A stretch of 44,753 bases of DNA from a virus (lineage: Duplodnaviria; Heunggongvirae; Uroviricota; Caudoviricetes). Both the position numbers and the translations under genes were made by a program. This document shows positions 6,264 through 37,660 of this stretch, piece by piece. The first letter of the stretch is position 1. Each line of letters begins with the position of its first letter. The notes beneath the pieces are model-generated. The model searched no databases, was not told the origin of the DNA, and saw only the letters and a list, made by a program, of their open reading frames with translations. The DNA is taken from positions 1 to 44,753 of the IMG/VR virus record IMGVR_UViG_2917860307_000001. One strand, 5' to 3'.

Positions 6264-6827
6264 ATGAGGCTAACCGTGGGTAAGCATCACTGGAAAGTAG
6301 AAAAACAGCCTGAGTGGTACGTGAAAGCTGTCAGAAAAACTATCGCGGCGTTGCCGGGGGGGTACGCTGAAGCTGCTGAGTGGCTGGATGTAACAGAGAA
6401 CGCTTTATTCAACCGCCTTCGTGCAGATGGCGATCAGATTTTCCCGCTGGGATGGGCAATGATTTTACAGCGCGCGGCTGGCACTCACTACATTGCGGAT
6501 GCTGTCGCACAGTCTGCTGGTGGGGTGTTTGTATCGCTTCCTGAAATTGAGGAAGTGGAGAACGCCGATATAAACCAGCGCCTGCTGGAAGTCATCGAAC
6601 AGATCGGGAGTTACTCAAAGCAGATTCGTTCGGCAATCGAAGATGGGGTAGTGGAGCCACACGAGCAGACAGCAATTAATGATGAGTTGTATCTGTCAAT
6701 TTCGAAGCTCCAGGAGCATGCAGCACTGGTCTACAAAATCTTTTGCGCTCCAGAAAAGAGTGACGCCCGCGAGTGTGCAGCTCCGGGCGTCGTGGCGTTT
6801 TGTGTCTGTGGAGAAACTAACGCATGA
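6264..6827 (+). CDS. CII-like / YdaT-family regulatory protein
   Basis: 187-aa ORF immediately after cro; family call tentative. Confidence 0.45.
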   Translation: MRLTVGKHHWKVEKQPEWYVKAVRKTIAALPGGYAEAAEWLDVTENALFNRLRADGDQIFPLGWAMILQRAAGTHYIADAVAQSAGGVFVSLPEIEEVENADINQRLLEVIEQIGSYSKQIRSAIEDGVVEPHEQTAINDELYLSISKLQEHAALVYKIFCAPEKSDARECAAPGVVAFCVCGETNA

Positions 6828-7660
6828 ACAGTTTAACGGCAAATAACCGTTTGTCGCAACAGCAGGTGGTCAGCGTCGCTGAACACCTGTTGTTACGGCA
6901 TGAATGCAGATTACCAAATCACCTGGCTGTAAGTAACCACAGAGAACTTTACCTGACTGTGGGGGGCGAGTTGTGCAGGAACTTAACCGCTGGTTTCGTG
7001 ACGGAAGAGGGCTTTATGTCCATGTTATTCGTTGGGAGCCAGAAACACAGCGCGTTATCTATCTTCGCAAAGACTACCCGCATGAGTGTTTTAGTCCTTT
7101 GTGGAAATTCAGGCGTGATTTTGTTGAGTGTGAAGGACCACCAGCACATTGATTCTGCCATTCCGGGACGTTACACTGTTCAGGCACCTTATAAAGCGGG
7201 TGCCGGGATTGGCGTCCTGGAAATGTTATCGGCGATATATGACGCGCCAGCGTCTTTTTTATCGTCTGCGTCTGCGCACACCCAAATTATGGTGGGCTGG
7301 ACGGGGGCACCGAAAGGTGCGCCGGTTTCCGATAACGCCGGTTACGCCAACCCCGTTCAGTTCACCACCAGCGAAATTGGCGTTTCCGGTGGTGAAGGTA
7401 ATTCACTGTTATCGGAGGCTGCCATCATGGCTACTGTCCCAGCCCTCTCTCGTCTGAATGATGAAGACTTACATAAACTCAGTTATGTAACAACTGCACT
7501 ACGTGCTCTGCGCAAGGTAACTCTTTCGGATCCGCAGGCGCATCAGGTTCTGGTAGAAACCCTTCTTAACTTGCAGGCTGAACGTATTCGTCTGGCGGAT
7601 AAGGCTAATTTTCATATTCACCGTCTCCTGAATATCAGCGGAGGGCATCGTCATGCTTAA
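6824..7660 (+). CDS. Hypothetical protein (possibly YdaU-like); frame integrity uncertain
   Basis: 278-aa ORF; a protein-like 59-codon alternative-frame ORF (6973-7152) begins at a G6 run at 6961-6966. Confidence 0.35.
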   Translation: MNSLTANNRLSQQQVVSVAEHLLLRHECRLPNHLAVSNHRELYLTVGGELCRNLTAGFVTEEGFMSMLFVGSQKHSALSIFAKTTRMSVLVLCGNSGVILLSVKDHQHIDSAIPGRYTVQAPYKAGAGIGVLEMLSAIYDAPASFLSSASAHTQIMVGWTGAPKGAPVSDNAGYANPVQFTTSEIGVSGGEGNSLLSEAAIMATVPALSRLNDEDLHKLSYVTTALRALRKVTLSDPQAHQVLVETLLNLQAERIRLADKANFHIHRLLNISGGHRHA

Positions 7661-8706: not shown

Positions 8707-9192
8707 ATGAGCCTGATGAGTGAGATTCAAAAATTCATTGAAAGCAATCCTGGATGTACGACCGGTGATATTGCGAATGCGTTTGCATACTTTCCACGTC
8801 CCCGTGTACTGAATACGACCCGTAAGTTACGCCAGTGCAGACGTGTCGCTTATCGCAGTGAAGGCAAAACACACAGGCATTTTTCTCGCAAGGCTGTGTT
8901 GCCACCTGAGCCGGTGCTGAAGCATATGAGTGTGGCCAGTAAAAGCTACGTCGGCACTAATGATCAGCGGGTGATTTTGCGCCTGATTCAGCAGGCAGAA
9001 GATCTGGAGTCCAGAGGTTTATTCCGTCGTGCTGCAACGGTGTGGATGGAGGCATTCCGTGAAAGCCACTCCCAGTCAGAACGAAACAATTTTCTGGCGC
9101 GCGTGAGCGGTGCTTACGGAAAAGCAGCAAGCGCGCTGTATCGGGTGATGAGTGGTATCTGTCAGGGAATTACGTGGGGGCTTAATGAGTAA
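8707..9192 (+). CDS. PerC-family-like regulator / hypothetical protein
   Basis: Start ATG 8707; C-terminal motif LESRGLFRRAATVWMEAFRESHSQSERNNF resembles PerC-like activators. Confidence 0.4.
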   Translation: MSLMSEIQKFIESNPGCTTGDIANAFAYFPRPRVLNTTRKLRQCRRVAYRSEGKTHRHFSRKAVLPPEPVLKHMSVASKSYVGTNDQRVILRLIQQAEDLESRGLFRRAATVWMEAFRESHSQSERNNFLARVSGAYGKAASALYRVMSGICQGITWGLNE

Positions 9193-9838
9193 TAAATATT
9201 GCCAGGCGCTGGTGGAGCTGCGAAACAAACCAGCCCATGAACTGAAGGAAGTGGGCGATCAGTGGCGCACGCCGGACAACATTTTCTGGGGAATTAACAC
9301 CCTGTTTGGCCCGTTTGTTCTGGATCTGTTCACTGACGGTGATAACGCCAAATGTGCCGCGTATTACACGGCGGAAGACAACGCGCTGGCGCATGACTGG
9401 TCAGAACGTCTTGCGGAGCTTAAAGGTGCTGCCTTTGGTAATCCCCCATACAGCCGCGCCAGTCAGCATGAGGGGCAATACATCACCGGCATGCGTTACA
9501 TCATGAAACATGCCAGTGCCATGCGTGATAAGGGCGGGCGCTATGTTTTCCTGATCAAAGCTGCCACCAGCGAAGTGTGGTGGCCGGAAGACGCAGACCA
9601 TATTGCTTTTATTCGCGGGCGTATTGGTTTTGAACTGCCTGCCTGGTTTATCCCGAAGGATGAGAAGCAGGTGCCGACAGGCGCTTTCTTCGCTGGTGCT
9701 ATTGCTGTTTTCGACAAGACCTGGAAGGGAGCGGCAATCAGCTACATCGGGCGCGATGAACTTGAGGCATGTGGTGAGGCCTTTCTGGCGCAGGTTCGCC
9801 AGCAGGCTGAAAAACTGGTCAGGGAGATGGCGGCATGA
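9185..9838 (+). CDS. Phage Dam-like DNA N6-adenine methyltransferase
   Basis: Start MSNKYCQ (ATG 9185); NPPY catalytic motif (AAFGNPPYSR). Confidence 0.7.
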   Translation: MSNKYCQALVELRNKPAHELKEVGDQWRTPDNIFWGINTLFGPFVLDLFTDGDNAKCAAYYTAEDNALAHDWSERLAELKGAAFGNPPYSRASQHEGQYITGMRYIMKHASAMRDKGGRYVFLIKAATSEVWWPEDADHIAFIRGRIGFELPAWFIPKDEKQVPTGAFFAGAIAVFDKTWKGAAISYIGRDELEACGEAFLAQVRQQAEKLVREMAA

Positions 9839-11377: not shown

Positions 11378-12373
11378 GTGACCGTGAGAGCACTACTGAC
11401 CCCTGAAATTGCCCCGCGTATGGGGATCGTATTGTTCAGGCCAGGTTCAGAGCTGATGCCCCTGTTTATGCAGGGGCGTGTCCTGCTGGAGCCTGAGCCG
11501 GAACGTTATTCATCTTTCGCCAGTGGTGCCGTTCCGGCGGCATCACAACCGCTGGCGGATGATCCTGCCGTTCGGGCCGTGTTCCGCAATGAGGCAGTGA
11601 TCCGTCGTGCTGGTGGCGTGGAATGTCTTGAAAGCTGGTTACTTCGTGAAAAAGGCTGCCAATGGCCTCATTCCGACTGGCACAGCGAGAACATGACCAC
11701 AATGCGACACGCTCCGGGCGCAATCCGTCTGTGCTGGCACTGCGATAACCAGCTGCGCGATCAGTTCACGGAACGGCTGGAATCAATGGCAACGGATAAC
11801 TGTGCCCGCTGGGTGTTGTCTGTAGTCCGTCGGGATCTCGGTTTTGATGATAACCATGCCGTGACAATGCCGGAACTGTGCTGGTGGCTGATTCGTAATG
11901 ACCTGGCGGATGCCTTACCTGAAAGCGCAGCCCGTAAGGCGCTGAGATTACCGAAACCTGCTGTGCCGTCTGTCACCCGGGAAAGTGACCTTGTGCCTTC
12001 GGTTCCTGCCACCAGCATCATCCAGGATAAAGCGAAAAATGTGCTGGCGCTGAAAGTGGATCCGGAGTCGCCGGAGTCTTTTATGTTACGCCCAAAACGC
12101 CGCCGCTGGGTTAATGAAAAGTACACGCGCTGGGTTAAGACACAGCCGTGTGCATGTTGTGGAAAGCCTGCTGATGATCCCCACCACCTGATAGGCCACG
12201 GTCAGGGTGGAATGGGTACAAAAGCGCATGACCTCTTTGTGTTGCCTTTGTGCAGAAAGCATCACGACGAGCTGCATGCGGATACCGTGGCATTTGAAGA
12301 GAAGTATGGCTCTCAGCTGGAGCTGATATTTCGTTTTATCGATCGTGCGCTGGCAATTGGCGTATTGGCGTAA
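11378..12373 (+). CDS. DUF968 domain protein
   Basis: GTG start; C-terminal Cys/His cluster PCACCGKPADDPHHLIGHG...LPLCRKHHDELH typical of DUF968 nin-region proteins. Confidence 0.6.
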   Translation: MTVRALLTPEIAPRMGIVLFRPGSELMPLFMQGRVLLEPEPERYSSFASGAVPAASQPLADDPAVRAVFRNEAVIRRAGGVECLESWLLREKGCQWPHSDWHSENMTTMRHAPGAIRLCWHCDNQLRDQFTERLESMATDNCARWVLSVVRRDLGFDDNHAVTMPELCWWLIRNDLADALPESAARKALRLPKPAVPSVTRESDLVPSVPATSIIQDKAKNVLALKVDPESPESFMLRPKRRRWVNEKYTRWVKTQPCACCGKPADDPHHLIGHGQGGMGTKAHDLFVLPLCRKHHDELHADTVAFEEKYGSQLELIFRFIDRALAIGVLA

Positions 12374-12386
12374 GTGGAGAACGAGC

Positions 12387-12941
12387 ATGAACCTTGAAGC
12401 CTTACCAAAATATTACTCCCCAAAATCTCCAAAATTGAGCGATGACGCACCGGCGACAGGCTCAGGTGGTTTAACGATTACGGATGTGATGGCTGCGCAG
12501 GGGATGGTGCAGTCGAAAGCACCGCTTGGGTTTGCCTTATTCCTGGCAAAAGTTGGTGTTCAGGATCCTCAATTTGCGATTGAAGGTCTGCTCAATTACG
12601 CGATGGCACTGGATAACCCGACATTGAACAAATTGAGTGAAGAAACCCGGTTACAGATCATCCCTTACCTTGTGAATTTTGCCTTTGCTGATTATTCCAG
12701 GTCTGCGGCAAGTAAGGCTCGCTGTGAGCATTGTGCTGGTACTGGATTTCATAATGTATTGCGCGAAGTGGTGAAACACTCCAGAAGCGGGGAATCTGTT
12801 ATCAAGGAAGAGTGGGTGAAGGAACTATGTCAGCATTGCCATGGTAAGGGAGAAGTCAGCACAGCGTGCAGAGGGTGTAAGGGTAAAGGTATTGTCCTGG
12901 ATGAAAAAAAGAACCCGGCTTCATGGTGTGCCTGTTTATAA
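12387..12941 (+). CDS. Antitermination protein Q (as read, terminates early; see downstream +1-frame fragment)
   Basis: Start MNLEALPKYY (ATG 12387); three CxxCxGxG zinc-finger repeats; position upstream of PR'-like promoter and lysis genes. Confidence 0.6.
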   Translation: MNLEALPKYYSPKSPKLSDDAPATGSGGLTITDVMAAQGMVQSKAPLGFALFLAKVGVQDPQFAIEGLLNYAMALDNPTLNKLSEETRLQIIPYLVNFAFADYSRSAASKARCEHCAGTGFHNVLREVVKHSRSGESVIKEEWVKELCQHCHGKGEVSTACRGCKGKGIVLDEKKNPASWCACL

Positions 12942-13140
12942 GATTTGTGGGCGTTGCAATGGCAACCGGTTTAGCCGTTTACCAACCACACTGGCGCGGC
13001 ATCATGTCCAGAAACTGGTACCGGACCTGACGGATTATCAGTGGTACAAAGGATATGCAGACGTTATTAATAAACTGGTTACAAAGTGCTGGCAGGAAGA
13101 AGCGTATGCTGAATCGCAATTGAGAAAAGTGACAAGATAG
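12901..13140 (+). CDS. Probable C-terminal fragment of antiterminator Q in the +1 frame
   Basis: Overlapping ORF in +1 frame beginning at the A7 run (12904-12910); carries a fourth CxxCxG repeat (CGRCNGNR). Confidence 0.35.
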   Translation: MKKRTRLHGVPVYKICGRCNGNRFSRLPTTLARHHVQKLVPDLTDYQWYKGYADVINKLVTKCWQEEAYAESQLRKVTR

Positions 13141-13171: not shown

Positions 13172-13200
13172 TTGCATTTTTCAAAAAATATGGATAAGAT
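13172..13200 (+). promoter_or_regulatory. Late promoter PR'-like
   Basis: -35 TTGCAT, 17-nt spacer, -10 TAAGAT directly downstream of Q and about 45 nt upstream of a terminator. Confidence 0.45.
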
Positions 13201-13242: not shown

Positions 13243-13268
13243 CAAAAACCCGCTGCTGAGCGGTTTTT
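13243..13268 (+). terminator. tR'-like rho-independent terminator
   Basis: AACCCGCT-GCTG-AGCGGTT hairpin (one-base bulge) followed by T7. Confidence 0.55.
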
Positions 13269-13428
13269 TTGTGCCTGATGTCTCATGAAACTATGAAATG
13301 GATTGGTGCGTTAAACATTTTTTCTTATTATCTTTTAGATTTTGGAGAGATGGTTAACGTCTGTATTCCAGAAACTCGATGGTTATTTAATAAATTAGTT
13401 TCAATGATGCTTCTAGGTTATGACTGTA

Positions 13429-13827
13429 ATGAAAAAGGTATTAATAGCAGCGATAGGTTTTTGTTTAGTTGGTTGTGCAGGTATGAAATTACCTGAGTAT
13501 TCGCAAGTTAAAGCAAGTCCGTATTATACAGATTGCCGTGCGTTTGCCATGGATGTTTATAAAAATGATGGATACAGCAAAATTGCGAAAACTACTATCC
13601 TTAGCATGGATGATGTGAAGGCTAGATATATTGTGACAGGGTGTGTAGTTGCTATGGGGAAAAACACTGTAGAGGAAATCAAAGCTGATCTCTCTGCTAA
13701 AGGGAGTTCTTTTGGGCTTATCAGTGGAGCTTGTTCTAGTGTGGCATGTCGGGTTGATGTAGAGCAGCAAATGAACGCTTATGTACTTGGTAGTTATTAT
13801 GCTGCAAATAAAAAAATTCCCGGATAA
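13429..13827 (+). CDS. Lipoprotein (moron)
   Basis: Signal peptide with lipobox MKKVLIAAIGFCLVGCAG; markedly low-GC gene flanked by terminators; alternative start at 13420. Confidence 0.6.
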   Translation: MKKVLIAAIGFCLVGCAGMKLPEYSQVKASPYYTDCRAFAMDVYKNDGYSKIAKTTILSMDDVKARYIVTGCVVAMGKNTVEEIKADLSAKGSSFGLISGACSSVACRVDVEQQMNAYVLGSYYAANKKIPG

Positions 13828-13922: not shown

Positions 13923-13948
13923 CAACCCGCCACTGAGCGGGTTTTTTG
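13923..13948 (+). terminator. Rho-independent terminator
   Basis: AACCCGC-CACTGA-GCGGGTT hairpin followed by T6; near-copy of the terminator at 13243. Confidence 0.55.
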
Positions 13949-14069
13949 TACCCGTAAACTTGGTGCAGTACAGTAAACACGCTGGTGGTCGTGAATACTG
14001 ACTTTTTATCTTGCTGGCTTTTTAGACAAGAGTTATTGGTATGTCATGTTAACCAGAAGGGAAAAAGAC

Positions 14070-14273
14070 ATGCTAAAACAGCAAGATATGACAGAAACCG
14101 CCGCCGCAGTCCTTCATTTCTTACCTGCTGACAAGTGGGTAACGCCACGCATGATGACGAGAACTACCGGAGTAAGCGAAGCCCGGTGCCAGTTAATACT
14201 GACTCAGTTAGTTCTGGCGGGTCTGGCGAAGGATAACGGCGGGTACGGGAATAAATTCAGACGCTGCCAGTAA
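14070..14273 (+). CDS. Small putative DNA-binding protein (winged-helix-like)
   Basis: Start MLKQQDMTE (ATG 14070, AAGGGA RBS); 67 aa. Confidence 0.35.
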   Translation: MLKQQDMTETAAAVLHFLPADKWVTPRMMTRTTGVSEARCQLILTQLVLAGLAKDNGGYGNKFRRCQ

Positions 14274-14423
14274 TGGCGGTTTCCTGCTGTGAAAATGGGC
14301 GGCTGGTGGGTGTTGGTAGCACGTGCCAGCCATTCGCTCATGCTTACTGGTCACAAGCGAACCACGGCCCACTGCTTTAGCGCAAAAGCAGAGTGAGCCT
14401 ACCAGAGTTACGCTTACTGATCC

Positions 14424-15476
14424 ATGAAAAATACTGTAAAAATAAACAGTGTTGATTTAATCAACGCTGATTGCCTGCATTTTATTCAGTCCCTGCCTGA
14501 TGATTCCATTGACCTGATTGTTACCGATCCGCCGTACTTCAAGGTGAAACCCAACGGCTGGGACAATCAGTGGAAAGGGGACGAAGATTACCTTAAGTGG
14601 CTGGACCACTGTCTGGCCCAGTTCTGGCGGGTGTTAAAACCTGCCGGAAGCCTTTACCTGTTCTGTGGGCATCGCCTGGCATCTGATATTGAGATCATGA
14701 TGCGTGAACGTTTCAACGTGCTTAACCATATCATCTGGGCGAAGCCGTCCGGACGTTGGAATGGGTGTAATAAAGAAAGTCTGCGCGCATATTTTCCTGC
14801 CACAGAGCGCGTTCTGTTTGCTGAACATTACCAAGGGCCATATCGCGGCAAAAGTGACGGCTATGCGGCAAAAGAAAGGGAACTCAAACAGCACATAATG
14901 GCACCGCTGATATCGTATTTCAGGGATGCTCGTGCCGAACTGGGTATAACGGCAAAACAAATTGCCGAAGCCACAGGTAAGAAAAATATGGTTTCCCACT
15001 GGTTTGGTGCCAGTCAGTGGCAGTTGCCGAATGAGGCTGACTATCGGAAGTTACAGGCACTGTTTTCCCGTATAGCGGCAGAGAAGTTTCAGGAACAACA
15101 ACTGGAACAACCACACCACCAGCTGGTGGCATCTTATGATTCACTGAATCGCAAATATTCTGAATTGCTGGATGAGTTTAAATCTCTCCGGCGCTATTTC
15201 TCCGTATCAGTCTCCGTGCCTTATACCGATGTCTGGATGCATAAACCCGTTCAGTTCTACCCGGGTAAACATCCGTGTGAGAAACCGGCGGATATGCTCA
15301 GGCAAATAATCAATGCCAGTAGTCGACCTGGTGATCTGGTTGCTGATTTTTTTATGGGATCCGGTTCCACAATAAAAGCAGCAATGGCGCTGGGGCGTCG
15401 GGCCTTAGGTGTTGAGCTTGAGTCAGAGCGGTTTAACCAGACAGTGAAAGAGATAAACGAGCTGGTGGGGAAATAA
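14424..15476 (+). CDS. Orphan DNA methyltransferase (N6-adenine/N4-cytosine family, DPPY motif)
   Basis: 350 aa; motif IVTDPPYF near the N-terminus and a C-terminal AdoMet-binding-like region (DFFMGSGST). Confidence 0.8.
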
Positions 15477-15482
15477 TCTGGT

Positions 15483-15506
15483 GGCCACGTCAGGTGGCCT
15501 TTTTAT
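15483..15506 (+). terminator. Rho-independent terminator
   Basis: GGCCAC-GTCAG-GTGGCC hairpin followed by T5. Confidence 0.55.
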
Positions 15507-15543: not shown

Positions 15544-15758
15544 ATGAAATCCATGGATAAGTTAACAACGGGTGTCGCCTATGGCACCTCAGCAGGTAGT
15601 GCCGGGTACTGGTTTTACAGTTGCTCGATAAAGTCACGCCCTCACAGTGGGCGGCAATAGGTGTGCTGGGTAGTCTGGTGTTTGGCCTGCTGACGTATCT
15701 GACAAATCTTTATTTCAAGATTAAAGAAGACAAGCGTAAGGCTGCACGGGGAGAGTAA
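15544..15758 (+). pseudogene. Class II holin (S21-type pinholin), frame interrupted at a T4 run (15613-15616)
   Basis: ATG 15544 with GAGGTGG RBS gives [24 protein letters not shown] then a stop; a second frame continues [47 protein letters not shown]; together about 71 aa. Confidence 0.65.
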
Positions 15759-15762
15759 TTCA

Positions 15763-16077
15763 ATGACTCAAAACTATGAACTGATTGTGAAAGGGATCCG
15801 CAATTTTGATAATAAAGTTACGGTAACTTTAGCGTTACGGGACAAAAAACGCTTTGACGGTGAAATTTTTGACCTGGACATCTCGCTGGACCGTGTTGAA
15901 GGTGCCGCGCTGGAGTTTTATGAGGCAGCAGCCAGAAGGAGCATCAGACAGGTCTTCCTGGATGTTGCTGCTGGGTTATGTGAAGGGGACGAGCTGTTGC
16001 CAGAAACGCGCCCCTGTTCAGAGGCGCGGTATACCATAAAAATTAACAGTTCTGATAACTCGATTACGGGTTGTTAG
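15763..16077 (+). CDS. DUF1327 protein (YdfR-like)
   Basis: 104-aa ORF between holin and endolysin, as in Qin-type lysis cassettes (from memory). Confidence 0.55.
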   Translation: MTQNYELIVKGIRNFDNKVTVTLALRDKKRFDGEIFDLDISLDRVEGAALEFYEAAARRSIRQVFLDVAAGLCEGDELLPETRPCSEARYTIKINSSDNSITGC

Positions 16078-27399: not shown

Positions 27400-27425
27400 G
27401 CCCCGGTTATCCGGGGCTTTTTTTG
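27400..27425 (+). terminator. Hairpin/T-run after major tail gene
   Basis: GCCCCGG-TTAT-CCGGGGC followed by T7. Confidence 0.5.
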
Positions 27426-28165: not shown

Positions 28166-29798
28166 TTTGGGGATTGATGCGGCAGAGTTTAAAAATGAAA
28201 TCCCCCGTATCAAAAACCTTCTGAATGGTGCAGCCAGCGATGCAGAACGGTCTTCTGCCCGTATGCAGCGTTTTATGGAGCGTCAGACTCAGGCCGCCCG
28301 GCAGACAACGCAGGCGGCGTCTTCGGCTGCAACAGCCGCATCCGTCCATGCGCAGACGGTGGAGAAGAACGCACAGGCTCATGAACGCATGGCCCGCGAG
28401 GTGGAGAAAACCCGCCAGCGCATGGAGGCGCTGAGCCAGAAAATGCGCGAGGAACAGGCGCAGGCCATGGCTCTGGCGGAGGCTCAGGATAAAGCGGCTG
28501 CTGCGTTTTATCGTCAGATTGACAGTGTGAAACAGGCCAGTGCGGGGCTGCAGGAATTACAGCGTATTCAGCAGCAGATCCGACAGGCCAGAAACAGTGG
28601 CGGGATTGGTCAGCAGGATTATCTGGCGCTGATTTCTGAGGTTACGGCGAAAACCCGTGTTCTTACACAGGCTGAGGAAGAGGCTACCCGACAGAAAGTG
28701 GCGTTTATCCGTCAGCTTAAAGAGCAGGCAACCCGCCAGAATCTTTCTTCTTCTGAGTTGCTTCGTGCTAAGGCTGCCCAGCTGGGGGTAAGCAGTGCTG
28801 CAGAAGTGTATATCCGCAAAATGGAGCAGGCAGGAAAAGCCACGCATTCGCTGGGGCTGAAAAGTGCAGCGGCCCGTCAGGAGATAGGCGTTCTGATAGG
28901 TGAACTGGCCCGCGGAAATTTAGGTGCGCTGAGGGGATCCGGAATAACGCTGGCTAACCGTGCCGGGTGGATAGACACATTGATGTCACCGAAAGGCATG
29001 ATGCTTGGCGGGGTTATTGGCGGTATTGCCGCGGCTGTCTATGGTCTGGGTAAAGCCTGGTATGACGGTCAGAAGGAGGGGGAAGAATTTAACCGCCAGC
29101 TGTCGCTGACGGGGCATTATGCCGGAGTCACTGCCGGGCAGCTGTGGACGCTCAGTCGTGCTATTTCCGGGAATGGTATCACGCAACATGCTGCAGCCGG
29201 TGCGCTGGCTCAGGTGGTGGGGAGTGGTGCATTTCGTGGAAACGATATCGGTATGGTGGCGAGAGCTGCCGCACAGATGGAGCGATCGGTTGGCCAGTCG
29301 GTCAGCGATACCATAAGTCAGTTTAAGCGGCTGAAGGATGATCCTGTAAATGCCGCGAAGGCTCTGGACAATGAGCTGCATTTTCTTACTGCCACTCAGC
29401 TTGAGCAGATACGCGTCCTTGGGGAACAGGGGCGGTCCAGTGATGCGGCACGGATAGCCATGTCTGCACTGGCAGAGGAAACCGGTCGGCGTACTGCGGA
29501 TATTGATAATAACCTCAATGCGCTGGGCAGTACGCTGAAGTATCTGTCTGATTTATGGAGTCGTTTCTGGGATGCGGCCATGAATATTGGTCGTGAAGAC
29601 TCGCTGGATGAACAGATTTCCGCTTTACAGGAGAAAGTGTCGCGGGCGAAAAGACTCCCCTGGACGGCATCATCTTCTCAGGTTGAGTACGATCAGCAGC
29701 GTCTTAACGAGCTTCAGGAGAAAAAAACGCCAGAAGGATTTGCAGGATGCAAAAGAGCAGGCAGAGCGGAATTATCAGGAGCAACAGAAACGCCGTAA
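28137..29798 (+). CDS. Tail tape measure protein gpH-like, N-terminal part (reading frame interrupted near 29721-29810)
   Basis: Start MDQIANLVIDLG (GGAGGTG RBS) parallels lambda gpH N-terminus; ORF ends 29798 in what should be mid-protein. Confidence 0.75.
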   Translation: MDQIANLVIDLGIDAAEFKNEIPRIKNLLNGAASDAERSSARMQRFMERQTQAARQTTQAASSAATAASVHAQTVEKNAQAHERMAREVEKTRQRMEALSQKMREEQAQAMALAEAQDKAAAAFYRQIDSVKQASAGLQELQRIQQQIRQARNSGGIGQQDYLALISEVTAKTRVLTQAEEEATRQKVAFIRQLKEQATRQNLSSSELLRAKAAQLGVSSAAEVYIRKMEQAGKATHSLGLKSAAARQEIGVLIGELARGNLGALRGSGITLANRAGWIDTLMSPKGMMLGGVIGGIAAAVYGLGKAWYDGQKEGEEFNRQLSLTGHYAGVTAGQLWTLSRAISGNGITQHAAAGALAQVVGSGAFRGNDIGMVARAAAQMERSVGQSVSDTISQFKRLKDDPVNAAKALDNELHFLTATQLEQIRVLGEQGRSSDAARIAMSALAEETGRRTADIDNNLNALGSTLKYLSDLWSRFWDAAMNIGREDSLDEQISALQEKVSRAKRLPWTASSSQVEYDQQRLNELQEKKTPEGFAGCKRAGRAELSGATETP

Positions 29799-31204
29799 TG
29801 CTGAAAATGCATGCACTGAACCGGATGAATGAAACGGAAGCAGCACGACATCAGCGTGAAATTGCGCGTATTAATGCCATGCAGTACGCCGATCAGGCTG
29901 TCAGGGATGCGGCGATACAACGTGAAAATGAACGTTACGAGAAAGCCCTGGCATCCGGTAAGAAAAAAACACGCGAAACCCGTAATGATGAGGCCACCCG
30001 GTTATTGCTGCAGTACAGTCAGCAACAGGCACAGGTGGAAGGACAGATTGCTGCTGCCAGACAGTCAGCAGGCATTGCCACGGAAAGGATGACAGAAGCG
30101 CATAAACAGCTTCTGGCTCTGCAGCAGCGCATCAGCGACCTGGACGGGAAAAAACTGACGGCAGATGAAAAGAGTGTGCTGGCCCGTAAAGATGAACTGA
30201 TTCAGGCACTGACGCTGCTGGATGTAAAACAGCAGGAGCTTCAGAAACAGACGGCACTCAACGAGCTGAAGAAAAAAACAATTCAGCTGACCAGTCAACT
30301 GACTGAAGAAGAGCGCGCTCAGCGTCAGCAACATGACCTGGATATCGCCACGGTGGGTATGGGTGATCAGCAGCGGCAGCGATATCAGGTACAACTGAGT
30401 CTTCGCCAGAAATACCAGCAACAGCTGGAGCAGTTGAGGCGGGATAGTGAGCAGAAAGGGACATATAACACGGATGACTACAGAAAGGCCGAGCAGGCGC
30501 TGACGGAGAGCCTGAACCGACAACTGAATGAGAATCGCCGTTACTGGCAACAGCTTGAAGTTGTGCAGGGTAACTGGAAAAACGGAGTCCTGCGTGCATT
30601 TCAGGATTTTACCGTGGATGCAGATAATACGGCAGGAACAGCAGAACAGGTGTTCTCGTCAGCCTTCAGCAACATGGGAAATGGCCTGGCAACTTTTGTC
30701 ACTACCGGCAAACTCAATTTCAAATCCTTCACCTCTTCTGTGCTGTCAGATATGGCGAAAATCCTGGCGCAGGCAACCATGATGAAATCGATAAAAGGGA
30801 TTGGCAGTGTACTGGGATTTGATCTCAGCAGCCTTTCCCTGAATGCCAATGGGGGGATTTATCAGTCTGCTGATTTGAGTCGCTACAGTGGCACGGTGGT
30901 TAACCGTCCGACGTTTTTTGCTTTTGCAAAAGGCGCGGGTGTGATGGGGGAAGCTGGACCTGAAGCCATTCTGCCACTGCGTCGTGGTGCTGACGGTAAG
31001 CTGGGGGTTGTGGCGGATATTGGTGGTTCAGGTATGGCGATGTTTGCCCCGCAGTACAACATCGAGATCAATAACGATGGCACGAACGGGCAGATAGGTC
31101 CGGCTGCCCTGAAGGTGGTTTATGACCTTGGGAAAAAAGCGGCAGCGGACTTTATGCAACAGCAGGCCCGTGATGGTGGTCGGTTAAGTGGAGCATATCG
31201 GTAA
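29747..31204 (+). CDS. Tail tape measure protein gpH-like, C-terminal part
   Basis: Coiled-coil-rich sequence ending ...EINNDGTNGQIGPAALKVVYDLGKKAAADFMQQQARDGGRLSGAYR, matching the lambda gpH C-terminus. Confidence 0.75.
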   Translation: MQKSRQSGIIRSNRNAVMLKMHALNRMNETEAARHQREIARINAMQYADQAVRDAAIQRENERYEKALASGKKKTRETRNDEATRLLLQYSQQQAQVEGQIAAARQSAGIATERMTEAHKQLLALQQRISDLDGKKLTADEKSVLARKDELIQALTLLDVKQQELQKQTALNELKKKTIQLTSQLTEEERAQRQQHDLDIATVGMGDQQRQRYQVQLSLRQKYQQQLEQLRRDSEQKGTYNTDDYRKAEQALTESLNRQLNENRRYWQQLEVVQGNWKNGVLRAFQDFTVDADNTAGTAEQVFSSAFSNMGNGLATFVTTGKLNFKSFTSSVLSDMAKILAQATMMKSIKGIGSVLGFDLSSLSLNANGGIYQSADLSRYSGTVVNRPTFFAFAKGAGVMGEAGPEAILPLRRGADGKLGVVADIGGSGMAMFAPQYNIEINNDGTNGQIGPAALKVVYDLGKKAAADFMQQQARDGGRLSGAYR

Positions 31205-37060: not shown

Positions 37061-37660
37061 ATGCGTAAATTATGTGCTGTTATTCTGTCTGCAGTAGTCT
37101 GGCTGGTCGCCGCTGGTACGCCAGCGAGTGCAGCAGAGCATCAGTCCACACTAAGCGGCGGGTATCTTCAGTCCCATACTGATATGCCCGGCAACGATGA
37201 CCTGAAGGGCATTAACGTGAAATACCGTTATGAATTTACGGACACGCTGGGGCTGGTGACGTCATTCAGCTATGCAGGAGACAAGAATCGCCAGCTTACC
37301 CGTTACAGCGATACCCACTGGCATGAAGATTCCATTCGTAACCGCTGGTTCAGCGTGATGGCGGGGCCGTCTGTGCGCGTGAATGAATGGTTCAGCGCGT
37401 ATGCGATCGCGGGTGTGGCTTACAGCCGTGTGTCGACTTTTTCCGGGGATTATCTTCAGGTGACCGACAACAAGGGGGATACGCACGATGTGCTGACCGG
37501 AAGTGATGACGGTCGCCACAGCAACACGTCTCTGGCGTGGGGGGCTGGCGTGCAGTTTAACCCGACCGAATTCGTGGCCATTGATATTGCTTATGAAGGT
37601 TCCGGCAGTGGCGACTGGCGCACTGACGGTTTCATCGTGGGTGTCGGTTATAAATTCTGA
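37061..37660 (+). CDS. lom: Outer membrane protein Lom (Ail/Lom family)
   Basis: 199 aa with signal peptide; beta-barrel OMP pattern ending GVGYKF; position after J as in lambda. Confidence 0.8.

Follow-up and report, generated by a model that had tools for sequence, protein, structure and literature searches.

In a lambdoid prophage, analyzed here as a 44,753-nucleotide (nt) stretch of viral DNA (Caudoviricetes; IMG/VR record IMGVR_UViG_2917860307_000001, positions 1 to 44,753; "the window" in what follows), a three-part cassette occupies the interval between the late antiterminator gene Q and the lysis genes. Its parts, read 5' to 3', are a gene for a 67-residue winged-helix protein, an untranslated leader of 139 nt that is conserved across genera, and a gene for a 350-residue DNA methyltransferase (methylase), assigned below to the M.EcoGII family. 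A preliminary description had singled out this methylase as an orphan with a DPPY motif, preceded by a small winged-helix gene and followed by a terminator, in a prophage that encodes a second, Dam-like methylase; the finding is real and had been read correctly, and every one of these anatomical claims held.

An M.EcoGII-type methylase without a nuclease partner

The open reading frame (ORF) of the methylase is intact. Pfam N6_N4_Mtase matches its product over residues 29-341 (E=2e-42), with a long insert inside the match. The arrangement of motifs is that of the β class: DPPY (residues 35-38, N-terminal), a central target-recognition domain, and the S-adenosylmethionine (SAM)-binding FxGxG motif in the form FMGSG (residues 310-314, C-terminal); both catalytic motifs were checked for loss and are intact. 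Alignment with M.EcoGII extends over the full length of the protein at 81% identity (281 of 349 residues, two 1-residue gaps) and takes in residues 160-237, the helical target-recognition domain; the M.EcoGII sequence used for this comparison was machine-read, with a few errors, from the PDF of supplementary file 5 of PMC11551740. The window protein shares 89% of its residues with the reconstructed ancestor Anc291 and all of them with the RefSeq protein WP_000799656.1 of Escherichia coli H1. On sequence grounds, the enzyme is a β-class SAM-dependent N6-adenine methyltransferase of the M.EcoGII family. As such it is not itself new, being one more copy of a common and commercially used enzyme family. 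The best sequence matches in the PDB (E ~1e-24) extend only over the conserved core of other β-class enzymes; a solved structure was dropped as a guide to specificity because what these matches cover is the shared catalytic core.

M.EcoGII methylates adenine in any sequence context, in double-stranded and single-stranded DNA, in RNA and in hybrids; it can modify up to 99% of dA, which gives protection against many restriction enzymes. Encoded by a prophage, it is silent in its native lysogen and harmful if constitutively expressed (Murray et al. 2018, PMC5778455), and it shares non-specificity, silence in lysogens and toxicity with M.EcoGI (PMC5778455). DNA and RNA both serve as substrates for M.EcoGII and for the ancestors Anc291, Anc289 and Anc284 alike, and no motif was found for the enzymes that were assayed for site specificity, namely M.EcoGII, Anc291 and SUPREM (Anc284) (PMC11551740). 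The window methylase is bracketed by these tested non-specific enzymes, and the bracketing strongly indicates that this allele is likewise non-specific. It resembles M.EcoGII and M.EcoGI, which come from prophages of E. coli O104:H4 C227-11, in length (350 as against 349 residues), in motif order, in being prophage-borne and in having no nuclease partner; it differs from M.EcoGII at 19% of residues and lies closer to Anc291. Since the family has no recognition motif, the motif-based target prediction that had been proposed for this enzyme is moot.

The orphan status of the methylase was borne out. An adjacent cognate nuclease was looked for, and Pfam, PHROGs and PADLOC scans of the flanking ORFs found none: the neighboring genes encode a lipoprotein-like protein of 135 residues, the winged-helix protein and a holin, none of which matches a PADLOC model of a defence nuclease.

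A conserved leader abutting the methylase start

The leader fills the space between the terminal hairpin of the small ORF and the methylase ATG, and it is better conserved across genera than either flanking gene: its nucleotide identity is 83-92% in most of 40 other-species loci, almost all of which have a methylase coding sequence of 67-84% identity, and the small ORF is barely alignable with them at the DNA level. The leader is neither a coding sequence nor an N-terminal extension of the methylase: no frame is open across species, insertions and deletions (indels) shift the frames, and an in-frame TGA stands 3 nt 5' of the ATG. No Shine-Dalgarno sequence precedes the methylase start. The consensus of the start context is GCTTACTGATCYATG, with an invariant GATC (14419-14422) 1 nt before the ATG. 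Each locus gives a single strong match to a covariance model of the leader (R1; 143 positions, 34 pairs), in every case on the coding strand and with its end at the ATG; 48 loci score at least 98 bits, and nothing comparable occurs elsewhere in 666 kb.

The fold proposed for this segment comprises a closing helix (H0) around two nearly abutting hairpins (H1, H2), followed by two further hairpins (H3, H4), the last of which ends almost at the start codon (Table 1). With this fold 93% of cells are paired, as against at most 45% with the partners slid; 8 pairs have changed on both sides, against 3.8 +/- 1.3 in shuffled alignments (equaled in 0 of 500); and the covariation score is 0.115, against 0.072 in the shuffles (again 0 of 500). 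The compensatory changes fall mostly in H1 and H2. Because the structure was derived from the same sequences that were then used to test it, these measures lend the proposed fold moderate support. G-U pairs are frequent (25 of 31 at one H4 position, for example), which favors the mRNA-sense strand as the one that folds. H3 is in addition a near-perfect 16-bp DNA palindrome, GCTTTAGCGCAAAAGC, which is perfect in many relatives in the form GCTTTAGCGCTAAAGC, and it may just as well serve a dimeric winged-helix protein as its operator.

Known classes of element do not account for the leader. ARAGORN found no tRNA in it, and searches against Rfam returned nothing at E<=10 for a 186-nt query and nothing at E<=1 for a 3.4-kb one. 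The prophage small RNAs Pas, AgvB, AsxR, Esr41 and STnc100 are different elements; the last four are represented in Rfam, and the leader matched none of them. An antiterminator RNA like the put sites of HK022 was also considered and set aside: the leader model did not match the HK022 put regions. As a possible promoter, the segment TGTGAAAAT has the look of an extended -10 element, of variable length (GAAAAT or GAAAT) and with no -35 element; the conserved element beside the small gene looks more like an RNA leader than like a promoter.

A possible origin is suggested by a distant resemblance. Over its 5' half the leader shows a weak alignment (15-17 bits) with elements located between Q and S in lambda (45,015-45,130) and HK022 (37,096-37,211). 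The shared features are GTGAAA..GGGYGGC, the H1 hairpin and a following ..GGTCAC.., in the same Q-to-S interval; the difference is that the lambda and HK022 hairpins have GTTTTG directly after them and are terminator-like, whereas the methylase leader lacks the U-tract and has acquired H0, H3 and H4. The H1 equivalents of Xenorhabdus and Photorhabdus also carry a U-tract. In both phages this hairpin stands between tR' and S, a stretch in which lambda presumably has tandem late terminators. A late-region terminator module is the probable source of the leader. The simple terminator scan used here misses lambda tR' and so cannot decide whether H1 is itself a terminator. A literature search that included the exact leader string found no published description of the leader or of its winged-helix partner, and within the literature searched these appear to be the only undescribed parts of the cassette.

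The winged-helix protein

An upstream ATG at 14046 would extend the small ORF to 75 residues; since all homologues begin MLKQQDM, the start is fixed at 14070, and the resulting 67-residue ORF is also annotated in phages Ayreon and SfV. An AlphaFold2 model built with 24 homologues (predicted local distance difference test score, pLDDT, 83) has the topology H-b-H-H-b-b, with helices at residues 4-17, 26-33 and 37-49 and strands at 53-55 and 63-65. Foldseek assigns it probability 1.0 of matching many winged-helix domains (Zalpha, IclR, TrmBL2, PefI and the RNA-binding winged helix of SelB), the best match being ADAR1 Zalpha (template-modeling score 0.86, root-mean-square deviation 1.0 Å). The predicted structure is a winged-helix fold. 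Pfam matches are weak (MarR_2, TrmB), and distant homologues, ~50-60% identical, are named "TrmB family" in some sources. The resemblance to Zalpha (Z-DNA- or Z-RNA-binding) domains is one of fold, and the protein is not counted among them: the conserved Zalpha contact residues, Asn173, Tyr177 and Trp195 of ADAR1, correspond in our own alignment to Gln41, Thr45 and Phe63, so that the fold matches and the key Tyr is absent. The third helix, the recognition helix, is invariant among homologues (CQLILTQL) in a protein that otherwise varies, a pattern of conservation that fits a conserved nucleic-acid target. Together with the conserved position of the gene, it is indirect evidence for nucleic-acid binding and for regulation of the methylase; most likely, the protein is a nucleic-acid-binding modulator of the methylase switch.

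A homologue of this protein (35-62% identity) is encoded directly 5' of the methylase in ~55 of 80 other-species loci; in the remainder, other cargo genes fill its position. Since the leader is kept in loci that lack the winged-helix gene, the protein is not required, and it is best described as a frequent but dispensable partner of the methylase.

The late region and its relatives

Table 1. Features of the late region, the leader fold and the second methylase of the window
Feature	Position	Strand	Evidence or remark
Dam-type methylase	9152..9838, likely start 9185	+	TIGR01712, PF05869
Late antiterminator Q, Antiterm type	12387..13140	+	PF03589 matched by both ORF pieces
First terminator after Q, tR'-like, CCGCTGCTGAGCGG then T7	13250..13270	+	Terminator scan; annotated in Ayreon and SfV
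Cargo gene, 135 residues	13420..13827	+	phrog_4748 (function unknown), E=9e-85
Second intrinsic terminator, AACCCGCCACTGAGCGGGTT then TTTTGT	13924..13950	+	Terminator scan; annotated in Ayreon
Winged-helix gene, 67 residues	14070..14273	+	phrog_331 (function unknown); predicted fold
Untranslated methylase leader	14285..14423	+	Cross-species conservation, covariance model
Proposed H0, closing helix	14296-14300 with 14367-14371		Encloses H1 and H2
Proposed H1, hairpin	14301-14331		One base from H2
Proposed H2, hairpin	14333-14361		
Proposed H3, hairpin	14374-14389		
Proposed H4, hairpin	14392-14418		Ends 5 nt before ATG
Methylase, 350 residues	14424..15476	+	Pfam N6_N4_Mtase, M.EcoGII alignment
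Terminator between methylase and holin	15483..15506	+	Terminator scan; annotated in Ayreon and SfV
S21/P21-type holin, first gene of the lysis cassette	15544..15758	+	PF04971 on C-terminal part
DUF1327 (YdfR family) gene, between holin and endolysin	15763-16077		Function unknown

Pfam places an Antiterm-type Q upstream of the cassette and, 3' of the methylase, a P21-type holin, the DUF1327 gene and a lysozyme. Terminator-like hairpins on the coding strand follow Q (13250), the cargo gene (13924), the small ORF (14263-14280) and the methylase (15483). The stop codon of the small ORF lies in the loop of its hairpin, which is weak here and a clear terminator in relatives; the terminator after the methylase consists of a GC-rich hairpin (15483-15499) followed by TTTTTATTT. 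A candidate late promoter, TTGCAT-17-TAAGAT (13172-13200), may be placed by inference just 5' of the first terminator. The cargo gene, bracketed by the terminators at 13250 and 13924, specifies a lipoprotein-type signal (…LVGC…); Pfam and PADLOC scans of it gave no match, and it is labeled "porin" in one phage record.

The same gene order from Q to holin is found in Ayreon, SfV, phiP27 and Stx2a_1447, and the succession of small ORF, leader and methylase recurs in SfV (orf47/orf48), phiP27 (L23/L24) and Stx2a_1447. In phiP27 and Stx2a_1447 the cassette lies in the Q-dependent late region, immediately 5' of the tRNA genes ileZ/argN/argO and of stx2AB, so that its terminators and leader stand between Q and the genes for the toxin. 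Over its 1.66 kb, the cassette matches phages mEp460, Ayreon and cdtI at 99-99.6% identity and Stx2c phages at ~90%; among 5,426 complete E. coli genomes, 1,059 contain 80% or more of it. Homologues of 56-93% identity are spread across the Enterobacterales (Salmonella, Klebsiella, Citrobacter, Erwinia, Proteus, Morganella, Photorhabdus, Xenorhabdus, Gilliamella). A cassette so widespread and already on record must be counted as known.

The second methylase of the prophage is a full-length member of the phage Dam-type family that includes M.EcoGV and M.EcoVT2-Dam (PMC6602927), a family unrelated to that of the enzyme encoded at 14424. It scores 254 bits against TIGR01712 ("phage N-6-adenine-methyltransferase"; cut-off 97), matches PF05869 at E=6e-45 and carries an NPPY motif (FGNPPYS); GATC specificity may be expected from its family. 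In the early region, two Rfam families score above their gathering thresholds, isrK (7184-7260, + strand, 63.7 bits) and C4 antisense RNA (7285-7372, + strand, 82.8 bits), inside or beside the ORF at 6824-7660; together they suggest an antirepressor control module of the P1/P7 or Gifsy type.

Proposed role of the cassette

The interpretation that is judged likely is that the methylase is expressed late, in dependence on Q, that it hypermethylates phage DNA against restriction, and that it is silent in the lysogen. The gene belongs to the late operon of a lambdoid prophage, 3' of Q and of the late promoter region and 5' of the holin, with three to four intrinsic terminators between the late promoter region and the methylase and one more before the holin. 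Because these terminators precede the methylase, its transcription is expected only with the terminator-resistant polymerase that Q generates, at a late time after induction or infection. The enzyme would then mark a large share of the adenines in replicating phage DNA, so that progeny genomes would enter new hosts already protected against Type I, II and III restriction enzymes that are sensitive to adenine methylation; the Dam-type enzyme would add methylation at GATC. Since a methylase of this kind is toxic to the host, the lysogen would keep it silent. The series of terminators would be part of that silencing, and the folded leader probably adds a further block, with H4 ending so close to a start that has no Shine-Dalgarno sequence. 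The winged-helix protein would be a likely nucleic-acid-binding modulator of the switch.

Anti-restriction is also the reading that the literature gives to the M.EcoGII family (PMC5778455, PMC12707154). A review of 2025 groups M.EcoGII with Mom as silent in lysogens and toxic (PMC12707154), and published work on relatives of the window enzyme supports both silence and toxicity (PMC5778455, PMC6602927, PMC12707154). Of the two roles offered for the methylase in the preliminary description, anti-restriction protection finds support in this literature; an epigenetic effect on the host is disfavored, the relatives being non-specific and silent in lysogens.

A number of points weigh against this interpretation or against parts of it. 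A few substitutions can alter the specificity of a methylase. An anti-restriction benefit in vivo has been demonstrated for no member of the family in the literature cited. Covariation in the leader is modest: H0, H3 and H4 hardly vary, and by one of the five measures applied, the number of extra pair types, the leader does not rise above the shuffles (167 of 500). About a quarter of the loci have the leader without the winged-helix gene. Finally, the window carries frameshifts in Q, in the holin and in the tape measure.

A more specific proposal, entertained as possible but somewhat doubtful, is that the leader is an undescribed cis-regulatory RNA of M.EcoGII-type genes that forms, with the winged-helix protein, a safety switch like that of com and mom, blocking translation. 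The small protein, acting as a binder of RNA hairpins, or some other late signal, such as processing by RNase III, would open the leader. The mom start of phage Mu is hidden by a stem, which is opened by the zinc finger Com, and Mom itself is an enzyme of the acetyltransferase fold; the hairpin here that ends 5 nt before a start lacking a Shine-Dalgarno sequence invites comparison with that stem. The parallel lies in a toxic, anti-restriction DNA modifier that is silent in the lysogen (PMC12707154) and in a nucleic-acid-binding protein of ~60 residues encoded directly 5' of it, a place that the predicted 67-residue winged helix would take here. The differences are equally plain: the proteins of the two systems, on this side a winged helix and a SAM methylase, are unrelated in sequence and fold, a quarter of the methylase loci have no small protein, and RNA binding by that protein is hypothetical. 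The resemblance is thus one of analogy in logic, not of homology. The C proteins of Type II restriction-modification systems offer a second comparison, as small DNA-binding proteins encoded just 5' of a modification gene and possible timing devices. C proteins are Xre-type helix-turn-helix proteins that act on C-boxes, in systems that include a nuclease; here there is a winged helix, no nuclease, and no C-box was identified.

Alternative explanations

The state of this particular copy raises the question of whether a decaying prophage carries the cassette as inert cargo, its methylase never made. Compared with close relatives (Ayreon, E. coli H1 and PhiR47_1, which are intact at all of the sites concerned), the window carries a series of 1-nt indels, of which those that split Q and the holin had escaped notice in the preliminary description. 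A run of A7 in place of A6 near 12904 splits Q into overlapping ORFs (12345..12941 and 12841..13140) where Ayreon and E. coli H1 have one intact gene of 753 nt; A7 for A6 near 13812 alters the C-terminus of the lipoprotein-like cargo gene; T4 for T5 near 15609-15612 frameshifts the holin; the tape measure gene has A7 for A6 at 29721 and one further base at 29811; and an intergenic T-run has a 1-nt indel at 27418. If these changes are real, this copy could not be expressed by its own Q and would yield no phage. Nearly all of them, however, fall in runs of 4-7 identical bases, which is the signature of homopolymer sequencing error and points to that origin. Moreover, elsewhere the late region shows 98-99.9% identity to viable phages, the methylase ORF is intact and identical to a RefSeq protein, and the Q of another prophage could act in trans. 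An inert cassette in a decaying prophage is accordingly considered unlikely.

That the methylase is instead a site-specific orphan, expressed in the lysogen and acting epigenetically on host genes in the manner of Dam or CcrM, is a notion that draws on the known capacity of orphan methylases to serve as regulators and on a weak likeness to the NCBIfam models for YhdJ and CcrM. The scores fall far under the cut-offs of these equivalogs, however (110 bits against 292 for YhdJ, NF008572; 68 against 830 for CcrM, NF050803); the close relatives M.EcoGII and M.EcoGI are non-specific, silent in lysogens and toxic (PMC5778455); methylomes determined by single-molecule real-time (SMRT) sequencing of lysogens with homologues of 92-93% similarity display no extra motif (PMC6602927); and the gene is preceded by several terminators and has a start that lacks a Shine-Dalgarno sequence. 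This makes an epigenetic function very improbable. An in vivo substrate other than duplex phage DNA, that is, RNA or single-stranded DNA in the form of phage or host transcripts or of replication and packaging intermediates, is suggested by the activity that M.EcoGII and related enzymes show on single-stranded DNA, RNA and RNA:DNA hybrids in vitro (PMC5778455, PMC11551740), and is nevertheless highly unlikely: activity on duplex DNA is the strongest reported, no role on RNA in vivo has been shown, and a place in the late operon fits the protection of packaged DNA. Least credible of all is that the methylase forms one half of a defence system, of the restriction-modification or another kind, with, for example, the DUF968/HNH-like gene at 11378-12373 as its nuclease, for which a weak HNHc_6 match (E=4e-6) and the annotation of the SfV homologue as an HNH endonuclease might be adduced, and which was rejected as partner: it lies 5' of Q, in a region read before the late promoter, is missing from many methylase loci and matches no PADLOC defence model, while the methylase itself is flanked by the winged-helix gene and the holin, and no defined target would exist for a nuclease whose partner is a non-specific methylase.

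Implications

In RefSeq and in phage records the methylase goes by the names "DNA methyltransferase" and "site-specific DNA-methyltransferase", and it could be renamed as M.EcoGII-type and non-specific. A defined control element could also help in the cloning or use of enzymes of this type. The position of the cassette between Q and stx2 in phiP27 and Stx2a_1447 implies that the leader could affect read-through into the toxin genes as well. Beyond this, the leader and its frequent winged-helix companion offer a lead to the way in which phages keep in check an enzyme whose mis-expression is lethal.

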